Part shown: piece by piece, positions 15,377 through 40,692 of the stretch | How positions within the stretch are numbered: the first letter of the stretch is position 1 | How the letters are laid out: each line of letters starts with the position of its first letter | Assembly (NCBI GenBank): GCA_037441705.1 | Contig: JBBIRR010000036.1 | Location: forward strand, 1-40,692 | Length of the DNA stretch: 40,692 nucleotides | Direction: 5' to 3' | Origin: Ignavibacteriales bacterium | GTDB taxonomy: Bacteria > Bacteroidota > Ignavibacteria > UBA10030 > UBA6906 | Position numbers and translations under genes: made by a program | The notes under the pieces: model-generated | The model's database searches: none | What the model was told of the DNA's origin: nothing | What the model saw: only the letters and a program-made list of their open reading frames with translations

Positions 15377-15401
15377 ATTATGATAAATCGTAATTTTTTA
15401 C

Positions 15402-15429
15402 TTGACAATTACGTAGAAAGGCGTATATT
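15402..15429 (+). promoter_or_regulatory. near-consensus sigma70-type promoter
   Basis: TTGACA (15402-15407), 16-nt spacer, TATATT (15424-15429), with AT-rich UP-like tract upstream. Confidence 0.75.
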
Positions 15430-15434
15430 TATAG

Positions 15435-15518
15435 GTGACCTTACGACAGTTTCTCCCCTGACTGTTGTAGACAAATGGTCAAGCCCGGCGTTCCCCCCAA
15501 CGCTGGGCTTTTAATTTT
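15435..15518 (+). ncRNA. candidate small RNA or attenuator leader with two C-rich-loop hairpins
   Basis: Hairpin TTACGACAGT/ACTGTTGTAG with loop TTCTCCCCTG, closed by TGACC/GGTCA; hairpin AAGCCCGGCGTT/AACGCTGGGCTT with loop CCCCCC followed by TTAATTTT; G-U pairs favour the + strand; directly behind a strong promoter. Confidence 0.6.
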
Positions 15519-15544: not shown

Positions 15545-15811
15545 ATGGCGAAAGCGATTCGAAAACAGAAACGCGCACAGAAAGAAGAACCGTTGCCGCT
15601 TGGCAGAGAGAATTTCATGATCATGGGAGTTGGTCTTCTCGTCATCATTATGGGCTACGTGGCGTTGGCAAAGGGACCCATCGAGGGATTCCTGCCGCTC
15701 GTGTTAGCGCCGATCCTGCTTGTTCTCGGGTACTGTGTAATAATCCCGTTGGGAATTCTGTTCAAAAAATCATATCTTAGATCACGGAACTCGAACCAGA
15801 CTCAGTCGTAA
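15545..15811 (+). CDS. DUF3098-like small membrane protein
   Basis: 88 aa, two TM helices; LPLGRENF..MGVGLLVIIMGY...LAPILLVLGY pattern; SD AGGA. Confidence 0.7.
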   Translation: MAKAIRKQKRAQKEEPLPLGRENFMIMGVGLLVIIMGYVALAKGPIEGFLPLVLAPILLVLGYCVIIPLGILFKKSYLRSRNSNQTQS

Positions 15812-31867: not shown

Positions 31868-32609
31868 AGTTGATATCCTCGGCGTCAGGGTGGATGTGAT
31901 TGACACGAACGGCCTGCATGGGGCGATTGCCGACAGTATAGCGCGACGCGCACGGGACATATACGCGTATGTGAACATCAACGCCATCAACATTGCGTGC
32001 GCCAGCGAGCGGTTCAAACGCTTTCTCAATAGTGCACACATTGTGTACTGCGATGGCGAAGGTGTGCGCCTGGGCGGAAAAATTCTCGGCTACCACCTTC
32101 CGCCGCGCGTCGTGCTGACGTACTGGATCTGGGAGCTGTGTGCGTTTTGCGAGGAGAGGGATTTCTCTTTCTACTTCCTCGGTGCCACAGAGCAGCATGT
32201 GCGCGAAGCTGTGGAGAGAGTTCGCGAACGGTTCCCGCGCTTGCGGATCGTCGGATTTCATCACGGCTATTTTGCCAAGCACGGAACGGAAAGTGACGCG
32301 GTCGTTGCGATGGTCAATCATGCCCGGCCGGATATTCTCGTTGTGGGTTTCGGTATGCCCATGCAGGAGTTCTGGATCGAGGAGAATCTCGATCGGCTCG
32401 ATGCGCACGTCATTCTTCCGGCGGGGTCGATGATTGACTACACGGCAGGACGGAAAGGTCTTGCTCCGAAATGGATGGCAGATCACGGCATGGAGTGGTT
32501 GTATCGCTTCTTTCAAGAACCGGGGCGCTTGTGGAAGCGGTACCTGATCGGGAATCCCTCCTTTATGATTCGTGTTCTGTCGCAACGTTTTCAAAAGGGG
32601 AGAGAGTGA
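31860..32609 (+). CDS. WecG/TagA/CpsF-family (GT26) glycosyltransferase
   Basis: ILGVRVD, DGEG, FYFLGA, HHGYF, VGFGMPMQE, APKWM...GMEWLYRF.QEP.RLWKRY. Confidence 0.92.
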   Translation: MPKVDILGVRVDVIDTNGLHGAIADSIARRARDIYAYVNINAINIACASERFKRFLNSAHIVYCDGEGVRLGGKILGYHLPPRVVLTYWIWELCAFCEERDFSFYFLGATEQHVREAVERVRERFPRLRIVGFHHGYFAKHGTESDAVVAMVNHARPDILVVGFGMPMQEFWIEENLDRLDAHVILPAGSMIDYTAGRKGLAPKWMADHGMEWLYRFFQEPGRLWKRYLIGNPSFMIRVLSQRFQKGRE

Positions 32610-38062: not shown

Positions 38063-40692
38063 ATGAAACGGCTACTCTCTCTCGTCATGTTGGTCGCTGC
38101 AGGCTATGCAACGCTTCTCGCGGCGAGTGCGGTGGAAGGATCACGCAAGAACGTTCGCATCGTTTCTCAAACCTTCGATCAATGGGTGATTGAGTACGCG
38201 CCTGAAGCTTTTCCGTACACGTTCATTGATATCGGCGGACGCCCGCATATTCTGTTTTCGAGCGCTGCAAATCTTGATGGAGGGGCCGATCATGCAGGCG
38301 AGCCTCTGCTTCCGATTGATGTCGTAACGCTCGGCATCCCGCCCAGCACAGCGCTTCGCGCGGAACTCGTTGACCCGGTCTACGAGACAATCTCCGATCA
38401 ACTGGTTGCGCCTGTGCCAACATACAGATTGAACGACGATCAGGAAATCGTTACGGAATACATCCCGAACGCAGGTGCTTACAGCCAGAACAGATTCTTC
38501 CCAACGAAGGAACTGATCACCGACCCGCCAGCGTTGCTGCGCGATCAATGGATTGCGTCGGTGCGGATGAGTCCCTACAGATACAACCCGGCAACGAAGG
38601 TGCTGCGAAGACTCGTTCGCGCAACACTCAAGATTCGCCTGACTTCCACCACCGATGCGCCGCCGCAGATTCAACCGACGGTTCCTGTGCGCGATCCTCT
38701 TTTTGAAAGCACGTATGAAGGAACGATCCTGAACTACGAACAAGCGCGGGAATGGCGAGTTGGAACAGCACAAGCGCAATCCCGCCCGAGCACGGACCCG
38801 ACGCGCGATTGGTTTGAGACGGGAAAGGATTACTACAAAATCCCCGTGGCGGAGGATGGGTGGTACAAAGTGACGAAAGCACAACTCGTGGCTGCCGGCG
38901 CAATTCCATCGCAGATCGATGTGCCGACGATGAAGATGTTCTACCGCGGCGCACAAATCCCGATTGTCGTGCGACCCGATACCAGTGTGGAGTTTTACGG
39001 CGTACGCAATGCCGGCGACTCGACATACACCGATTTCTTCACGGACACAAGCGCCTACTGGCTGACGTGGGGCGGAACGCCGGGCATGCGATTCACACCC
39101 ACGCTTGTCGATTCGGTCCCGCCGGTTTCAGCCGCAGCCTCGGCAACGGTGACGAGGCATTTCGAGAAGAATGAATGGTACTTCCAGGGCACAACGGCGG
39201 CCGATATCATCAATATCGAAACTGTGCCCGGTGAAGGATGGGCATGGGGCACGGCAAATGAGTGGTTCTTCCCGGGAGCAACGCGCGAGTTTGAGTTTAC
39301 GCTCGACAACGTCGATACGACGACGGCCGCGCAGGCAACCATGCGCATTCGTCTCGTGAGCACGACGTTGAACTACACGACGCCCAACCATCATGCTCGC
39401 TTCTGGCTCCTGGATTCGACTTCGTCCTTCGGTGCGATGGACCCCTGGCCGTTGGGCGAGGTGACATTTGCGGGCCGGACAAGCGTCGTGTACACCGTGT
39501 CGTTTCCGCGCGAGTATCTGAAGAACGGACGAAACGTTCTCCGCATTCAATCCATCAACACGGGCGCATCACCCAACCAGTTTTATCTCGATTGGTTTGA
39601 GGTGGATTATGTACGGAACTTGCGTCCGCAGAACAACCAGCTCACGTTTCCTATCGCGGCGCAGATGCCGGCGGCACGCACAATCTTTCGGGCTTCCGGG
39701 TTTACCGCGCCGCAGATCGAAGTGTTCGATCTTGCCACACGACGCGCGATCACCAGCGTCCAGATCACGCCCGTTGGAGGCGAGTACGAGATCGCCTTTC
39801 GCGATTCGGTGACAGGCCCGCGGCTGTACGCCGTTGTTGCCGAAGGCGGCGCTCGACAGGTTCCGTACGTGAAGCGCAAGAGGTTTTCGGATATTCGCGT
39901 CAATCCTCAGGGTGCCGATTATCTCGTGATCGCGCATCGAGATTTTCTTGTCGCTGCGCAGCAGTTGGCGGCACATCGGCAGGCCGTCAACGGCGTGCGC
40001 ACAAAGGTGATCGACGTGGAGGAGATTTATGACGAATTCAACTACGGCATCATGAACGGAACGAAGCTGAAGGCGTTCATCAAACATGCGTACGACTTCT
40101 GGCCCGCACCGCGACCCACGTACCTTCTCCTCTTCGGTGATGCATGCTGGGACTACCATCGCTTCTACGCAACCTCCATCAACACCAATTACGTCCCGTC
40201 GTATGGGGTGCCGGTGACCGACAACTGGTTTGTCACATTCAATCCCGATACAAGCGCATTGCCTGCCATGCTTGTCGGGCGGCTGCCGGTAAGAACCTCT
40301 CATGAGGCAAGGCAGACGGTGCTGAAAATCATCGGATACGACAACTACCAGCTTGCGGAATGGAACAAGAACTTTCTGTTCATCACCGGCGGGAATGATC
40401 CCGGAGAGCAATCCCTCTTCAACGCATACTCGGAGTTCATGATCAGTACAAAAATTCTTCCGGCGCCCATCGGCGGAACGAGCTTCCGCGTGTACAAGAA
40501 CACACGCGGTGCTATCGACGGCGAGCATAAGGCACGGCTGAAAGAGTTGGTGCGCAACGGCCTCGCGTTCATGAACTTCATCGGCCACTCGGGCGGAAGA
40601 ATCTGGGGTGTGGATATCGGCCCGCCGGGTGAACTGGAGAACACCGACGGGAAACTGCCGTTTGTTGCGTCGACGAGCTGCAACGTGGGCGG
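38063..40692 (+). CDS. second C25-family cysteine peptidase (paralog), 3'-partial
   Basis: ATG 38063 MKRLLSLVMLVAAG... signal peptide; same frame at the window end; DPTRDWFETG, ADYLVIAH, IYDEFNYG, FIGHSGGRIWG, STSCNVG; absent from the ORF track because it has no stop in the window. Confidence 0.88.
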   Translation, partial: MKRLLSLVMLVAAGYATLLAASAVEGSRKNVRIVSQTFDQWVIEYAPEAFPYTFIDIGGRPHILFSSAANLDGGADHAGEPLLPIDVVTLGIPPSTALRAELVDPVYETISDQLVAPVPTYRLNDDQEIVTEYIPNAGAYSQNRFFPTKELITDPPALLRDQWIASVRMSPYRYNPATKVLRRLVRATLKIRLTSTTDAPPQIQPTVPVRDPLFESTYEGTILNYEQAREWRVGTAQAQSRPSTDPTRDWFETGKDYYKIPVAEDGWYKVTKAQLVAAGAIPSQIDVPTMKMFYRGAQIPIVVRPDTSVEFYGVRNAGDSTYTDFFTDTSAYWLTWGGTPGMRFTPTLVDSVPPVSAAASATVTRHFEKNEWYFQGTTAADIINIETVPGEGWAWGTANEWFFPGATREFEFTLDNVDTTTAAQATMRIRLVSTTLNYTTPNHHARFWLLDSTSSFGAMDPWPLGEVTFAGRTSVVYTVSFPREYLKNGRNVLRIQSINTGASPNQFYLDWFEVDYVRNLRPQNNQLTFPIAAQMPAARTIFRASGFTAPQIEVFDLATRRAITSVQITPVGGEYEIAFRDSVTGPRLYAVVAEGGARQVPYVKRKRFSDIRVNPQGADYLVIAHRDFLVAAQQLAAHRQAVNGVRTKVIDVEEIYDEFNYGIMNGTKLKAFIKHAYDFWPAPRPTYLLLFGDACWDYHRFYATSINTNYVPSYGVPVTDNWFVTFNPDTSALPAMLVGRLPVRTSHEARQTVLKIIGYDNYQLAEWNKNFLFITGGNDPGEQSLFNAYSEFMISTKILPAPIGGTSFRVYKNTRGAIDGEHKARLKELVRNGLAFMNFIGHSGGRIWGVDIGPPGELENTDGKLPFVASTSCNVG

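Follow-up and report, generated by a model that had tools for sequence, protein, structure and literature searches.

A probable new family of small RNAs with two C-rich loops in the class Ignavibacteria

The window, that is, the whole 40,692-nucleotide stretch of Ignavibacteriales DNA analysed here, harbors between the lolD stop (15376) and the DUF3098 start (15545) a gene for a predicted RNA of about 78 nt on the + strand (15437 to about 15514). We have little doubt that this is a real non-coding RNA, conserved at the level of the class. Its sequence, structure, promoter and terminator are conserved, and it occurs independently of any particular gene context. By analogy with known RNAs carrying C-rich loops, it is probably a trans-acting, chaperone-independent base-pairing sRNA present in much of the class, and it combines general features of such sRNAs, namely its own promoter and terminator, a conserved structure and an exposed, conserved loop. 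In the proposed mechanism, the sRNA would be driven by its own sigma70 promoter and ended by its own terminator, and two rigid hairpins would present single-stranded C-rich loops. These loops would start G-C-rich duplexes with exposed G-runs (GGGG, GGGGAG) located on or close to ribosome-binding sites, and translation would be repressed in the manner of 6C and RepG. At the ancestral locus the sRNA would double as the leader 5' of DUF3098, whose expression would come from read-through. From the features described below we infer its expression, base-pairing, repression, read-through and all of its targets.

Promoter and structure of the RNA

The promoter (TTGACA-16-TATATT, Table 1) matches the consensus at 11 of 12 positions, with a 16-nt spacer, in agreement with the near-consensus promoter reported ahead of the RNA by the first-pass annotation. 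It is the sole promoter-like site on the + strand between 14500 and 16500, a region that holds four such sites on both strands (0.7 expected). The spacing from the promoter to the basal helix P1 would put the transcription start at about 15435-15437. The stretch from 15434 to 15518 folds with -36.9 kcal/mol (z -6.61) and none of 200 shuffled sequences was equally stable, so that the earlier description of some 80 nt as almost fully structured holds. The reverse strand reaches a z of only -1.62, indicating that the + strand, as originally called, is the correct one. Both C-rich loops, the second of them inside the terminator, are present as described. P1, which the earlier annotation had left unnamed, shows the strongest conservation of all helices, with 93% column identity. 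The U-tract that follows the terminator stem is interrupted in the window.

Table 1. Predicted features of the RNA locus and related sites in the window
Feature	Position	Strand	Basis or remark
-35 hexamer TTGACA	15402-15407	+	sigma70-type promoter
-10 hexamer TATATT	15424-15429	+	sigma70-type promoter
5' domain (P1, P2 and 3' bulge)	15437-15480	+	fold, covariation
Basal helix P1, GACC/GGUC	15437-15440 with 15477-15480	+	fold, covariation
Helix P2	15441-15450 with 15461-15470	+	fold, covariation
Loop 1 UUCUCCCCUG, candidate seed	15451-15460	+	core (C/U)UCCCC(U) conserved
Variable one-sided 3' bulge	15471-15476	+	49% conserved
Intrinsic terminator hairpin P3, 12-bp stem	15481-15510	+	followed by U-tract UUAAUUUU to 15518
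Loop 2 CCCCCC, second candidate seed	15493-15498	+	inside terminator P3
DUF3098 small membrane-protein gene	15545-15811	+	usual downstream neighbour of the RNA
C25/PorU-like gene ribosome-binding site AGGGGAGA	32596-32603	+	candidate target, loop 1 rank 10/3216

All 12 loci of the genus (L001-L012; window 15389-15414) share the motif TCGTAA directly ahead of the -35 box, and a complementary TTACG half lies 3' of that box in seven of them (both by eye); the pair may represent an operator. A minus-strand promoter-like site (15408-15380), directed antisense into lolD, overlaps the TCGTAA region.

Conservation and covariation

Homologs were compared in an alignment of 63 full-length sequences (A3), from which weak or truncated hits, hits with loop 2 only and the majority of the near-identical copies from f1, the family of the window genome, were left out (f-numbers designate families, L-numbers loci and G000 the window genome). 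In this alignment 95.6% of the cells are paired. A covariation check of the kind that the first-pass annotation had proposed came out in favor of the structure, with two-sided changes in 23 of 24 pairs, including all four pairs of P1 and all nine of P2. The covariation score reaches 0.495, compared with 0.229 in shuffled alignments and at most 0.157 with slid partners, in an alignment fitted to the model and made of related sequences. A separate MAFFT alignment (A1) has compensatory changes in 8 of 21 pairs.

Column identity over the 63 homologs is highest in P1 (0.93), followed by loop 2 (0.87), loop 1 (0.86), P3 (0.83) and P2 (0.72), and lowest in the bulge (0.49). Loop 1 is therefore more conserved than its own stem, which is the usual signature of a seed. 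The promoter pattern is present in 56 of the 63 homologs (34 of 3000 random windows), and in all 56 the -10 box ends 5-9 nt ahead of P1 (6-7 nt in 47), placing the start at P1. The core terminator has a pair probability above 0.9 in 63/63 homologs when folded with 60 nt of downstream sequence.

CCCC is found in loop 1 of 59 homologs and in loop 2 of 57; it occurs in both loops in 54, in loop 1 only in five, in loop 2 only in three and in neither in one. The DUF3098-linked homologs of f11 and f53 have an A/U-rich loop 1, with loop 2 as their sole C-loop, and in L321, L326 and L043 loop 1 is the sole C-loop. This alternate retention of a single loop across lineages suggests that the two loops are redundant. 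Nine genomes harbor 2-4 copies of at least 40 bits, and the extra copies mostly have their own promoter. Two genera, g62 (L184-L198, L204-L212) and g47 (L199-L202, L335), show sibling expansions with an altered loop 1 and 2-4 strong copies per genome.

Distribution

The RNA is nearly invariant in 30/30 loci of f1, with diverged flanks. It has no paralog in its own genome according to blastn, nhmmer and two covariance models (next best match E 0.06 with R1 and E 0.016 with R2). A search of genome contigs with an exact 20-nt pattern returned 67 stretches, of which six match by chance, with nothing else of the element around them, and one is masked; the remaining ones are mostly in Ignavibacteria or Bacteroidota MAGs. 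Viral contigs gave no exact match to one pattern.

In the large covariance model searches 30 candidates per genome were scored, so absences are to be read as "not found"; for instance, the RNA of genome G042 was missed in the large search and later found at E 4.9e-7. Of 150 other genomes of the order, 90 gave a match at E<=1e-10 to model R1, which was built from 66 distinct sequences (30 candidates scored per genome); they are distributed as f1 31/31, f3 1/3, f4 2/3, f6 3/4, f7 26/32, f8 24/31 and f9 3/3; among the same candidates no strong match was found in f2 (0/11) or f5 (0/32). Model R2, again with 30 candidates scored per genome, gave a match at E<=1e-3 in 61 of 151 genomes of the class and at E<=1e-8 in 36, and 23 of the latter genomes fall in eight families of other orders of the class. 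In 114 genomes outside the class, the best R2 match among the 30 candidates per genome had E 8.4e-6, and the inspected loci L337-L339 were not convincing.

The families f2 and f5, where no strong match was found, indicate that the RNA is dispensable in some lineages. This would agree with the locus being only a strong, insulated promoter-terminator unit whose RNA has no function of its own. However, covarying stems and a conserved loop in a 5' hairpin are more than termination requires, and duplicated copies of the RNA retain both loops and the promoter, which makes a functionless transcript very improbable.

Relation to DUF3098

The downstream gene corresponds to Pfam PF11297; its match in the window (E 1.5e-4) falls short of the curated cut-off, which homologs exceed, and DUF3098 was found in 57 of 61 genomes. 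Its ATG lies 27 nt after the end of the terminator tract, as the first-pass annotation had estimated. The RNA is upstream of DUF3098 in 30/30 f1 loci, and the link outlasts changes of the upstream genes and is kept in many families. In most families a single-copy ortholog stands upstream of DUF3098, a situation that a cis role would account for too. A promoter-like site directly ahead of DUF3098 was seen by eye in six f2/f5 loci without the RNA. Together with the DUF3098 link, this fits a leader position and read-through, and DUF3098 is probably transcribed by read-through from the promoter of the RNA.

The first-pass annotation had left the choice between a trans-acting repressor of translation and an attenuator for DUF3098, tRNA-Lys and tRNA-Leu. 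As an attenuator, the RNA would be a cis leader in which a ligand, a protein or a partner RNA on the loops switches termination. Its location between DUF3098 and the only + strand promoter found, the survival of the DUF3098 link in many families despite upstream gene changes and the interrupted U-tract of the window are all consistent with such a leader, which we nevertheless consider quite unlikely. In the window no antiterminator is formed, since the 5' arm pairs upstream with a probability of at most 0.08 (-3.3 versus -19.6 kcal/mol), and among homologs the terminator forms throughout. The tRNA part was not borne out, as only 10 of the 19 f1 loci inspected gave a tRNA-Lys and the link is not conserved. 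Pairing of loop 1 with the DUF3098 start is moderate, with a median of -8.3 in 49 RNA-bearing loci versus -7.0 for the genome, and -3.7 in seven RNA-lacking loci.

Moreover, some copies lie ahead of convergent genes (L166, L169, L170, L186, L187 and L321). Among 17 copies located away from DUF3098, five face a convergent ORF, the next same-strand ORF is more than 170 nt away in seven and it lies within 100 nt in five, according to crude ORF calls. The genes adjoining these copies belong to unrelated families. In f15 and f18 the RNA adjoins ispG, and a convergent gene then follows in L170 and L321. The RNA is thus not always 5' of functionally related same-strand genes, as an attenuator, T-box or riboswitch would be. 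The copies away from DUF3098, the lack of an antiterminator in the window and the unconserved tRNA link favor a context-independent, trans-acting RNA over an attenuator, with repression at ribosome-binding sites suggested by analogy.

Some loci of f11, f16 and f53 (L171, L173, L328 and others) have a conserved ORF of about 83 aa without Pfam match directly upstream of the RNA, and in L171-L173 and L328 a 16S rRNA gene is nearby on the opposite strand. In the window genome, the 16S-23S spacer contains, after tRNA-Ile and tRNA-Ala(UGC), a third tRNA-like gene (G000:C18:14440-14513). ARAGORN reports it as Lys(ttt); its body nearly reproduces tRNA-Ala, the anticodon arm being changed and the acceptor stem mismatched.

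Candidate targets and pairing

The genome uses Shine-Dalgarno sites, AAGGAG being found 294 times within 20 nt upstream of starts (21 expected), a partly circular count since the gene caller used Shine-Dalgarno motifs. A figure of 32% is given for Ignavibacteria in connection with Shine-Dalgarno use in a table of PMC10783764. Neither Hfq nor ProQ was found in the window genome, which is 100% complete, and the search for LSM gave one weak match (E 6.8e-4), below cut-off and in a 43-aa frame.

Over 3216 start regions, the best loop 1 duplex reaches -21.1 and the 1% level is -15.6; the ranges given by 20 shuffled loops include both values. Loop 1 pairs with start regions scarcely better than with gene interiors. 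The enrichment of its complement at starts is seen for a control 7-mer too, again with a gene caller that used Shine-Dalgarno motifs. For loop 2, start regions show no enrichment of complements, and the pattern CAGGGGAGA..ATG is equally common in f5 genomes lacking the RNA.

The absence of a target signal above shuffled controls would be expected if the RNA bound a protein rather than mRNA, as a trans-acting sponge or scaffold whose C-rich loops and GACC/GGUC basal helix would make the contact. The conservation of P1 (93%) and of the terminator stem (83%), above what structure or display of a seed needs, fits protein binding as well, and multiple copies are typical of sponge RNAs. Yet the search for Hfq, ProQ and LSM gave no candidate protein, and known C-rich-loop sRNAs, in the portions of the literature cited below, pair with G-rich mRNA; we regard protein binding as unlikely.

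As to mRNA targets of a base-pairing sRNA, the complementarity between loop 1 and the ribosome-binding site of the C25/PorU-like gene noted by the first-pass annotation is present and high-ranking (Table 1), but it is only partially retained: GGGG is present in 4 of 6 homologs of the genus, and loop 1 pairing puts 8 of the 28 homolog loci into the top 5%. Two further genes have GGGG at the ribosome-binding site of most orthologs in the genus, glmS (8/9) and peptidase C26 (9/10), compared with one occurrence in 61 ortholog starts of neighbouring genes in the same loci and a genome background of 128/3226 (4%). Since glmS, peptidase C26 and PorU were picked for having GGGG, shared descent can explain its retention. 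For peptidase C26, 8 of 28 loci are in the top 5% for loop 1, six of them in the genus. In a comparison of glmS starts, for which 120 of 151 genomes matched the pattern, GGGG was counted by eye in 16/24 genomes of f1, 1/26 of f8, 0/25 of f7 and 0/3 of f9, all RNA-bearing families, in 0/4 of f6, and in 2/25 of f5 and 0/10 of f2, which lack the RNA. The glmS site is a candidate target at the family level only. No order-wide conserved target was found among glmS, peptidase C26 and PorU, and 30 loci with the pattern did not include a recurring gene. The glmS starts compared are L244-L272, and that of the window genome is at G000:C21:40794. A second PorU/C25-like N-terminal region, missed by the gene caller, lies 3' of the first one (window 38108-39250), and tandem copies exist in relatives too.

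Other pairing partners were considered and rejected. The D-loop in the downstream tRNA-Lys was discarded as a partner of loop 1, because it is variable among genomes bearing the RNA and because L040 and L042, which lack the RNA, have the G-run. Outside the RNA gene, the best long antisense site measures 15 nt (E 0.37), with no called sense gene at that position, and duplexes with rRNA are no stronger than the best mRNA duplexes. Loss of the RNA does not track loss of Shine-Dalgarno use, since in f2 and f5, similarly to f1, AGGAG..ATG is more frequent than its reversed control (by eye).

A broader scenario would be a class-wide, leader-derived sRNA reading a G-run code. Its regulon would be the mRNAs with GGGG instead of the canonical GGAG at the ribosome-binding site (128/3226, including glmS, the glutamine amidotransferase peptidase C26 and PorU); interchangeable loops would have been lost alternately and diversified in sibling copies, and partial termination would couple its output to DUF3098. 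We consider this whole scenario doubtful.

Comparison with known RNAs

No Rfam family was found at its own cut-off for the element, the window or 20 homolog loci, so the novelty suggested by the first-pass annotation withstood this search. 6C, RepG and cuckoo RNAs have C-rich loops for which pairing with G-rich leaders is described or proposed in the parts of the respective papers drawn on here. In Mycobacterium tuberculosis, the loops of 6C are described, in the section of PMC6486639 used here, as binding G-rich ribosome-binding sites without a chaperone. The present RNA shares with 6C (RF01066, Actinobacteria) the two hairpins with C-rich loops, but it belongs to a different phylum and its loop 2 is inside the terminator. 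RF01066 (cut-off 47 bits) gave no match at E<=10 in the region or the genome, a genome search that stays under the cut-off in control genomes too.

RepG of Helicobacter pylori has a C/U-rich terminator loop that pairs with G-runs, as stated in an excerpt of PMC8295292. The two RNAs have in common two stem-loops and such a terminator loop, here with CCCC in most homologs. RepG is reported from Helicobacter species, whereas in the present RNA both loops are C-rich and a basal helix is present; the two are set apart by description, and no Rfam hit named RepG was obtained at the window or homolog loci.

The best Rfam resemblance is to cuckoo/ar14 (RF02344, Alphaproteobacteria), with 30.9 bits (E 0.002) and 34.9 bits for L187, under a cut-off of 58.8. 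Like cuckoo RNAs, the present RNA has anti-SD-like loops on adjacent hairpins, of which it has two (2-4 in cuckoo/ar14), and several copies in some genomes. However, the defining CCUCCUCCC motif occurs in none of the 63 homolog loop pairs, and the stems are conserved here but highly variable in cuckoo RNAs, to judge from the portion of PMC4615179 that describes their anti-SD-like loops. Chlorobi-1 (RF01696), from the related Chlorobia, is likewise a small two-hairpin ncRNA with a terminator, but its loop is GGGGG and not C-rich, as given in an extract of PMC2864571. With a cut-off of 50 bits it has no match at the RNA locus, and its best score elsewhere in G000 is 13.5 bits. The GGGGG loop of Chlorobi-1 is complementary to loop 2; co-occurrence of the two RNAs was not found in G000.

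The RNA most likely represents a new sRNA family, working by analogy like 6C, RepG and cuckoo RNAs and falling outside 6C, cuckoo and Chlorobi-1 by the features tested and outside RepG by description. In the literature searched, neither such an RNA nor any regulatory sRNA of the class was found. Chlorobi and Ignavibacteria are not mentioned in the main texts of PMC11109978, PMC8632094 and PMC5737381, whose supplementary motif lists could hold the RNA.

Significance

In a class mostly known from metagenome-assembled genomes, the RNA would provide a family of Rfam quality, with covariation, a defined promoter and 3' end (both predicted), sibling expansions and alternate loop loss. It would apparently be one more independent origin of sRNAs with C-rich loops, in a lineage in which neither Hfq nor ProQ was found. 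Moreover, glmS is controlled elsewhere by the glmS ribozyme and by GlmY/GlmZ, and its targeting by the present RNA, if true, would add a further route of glmS control.
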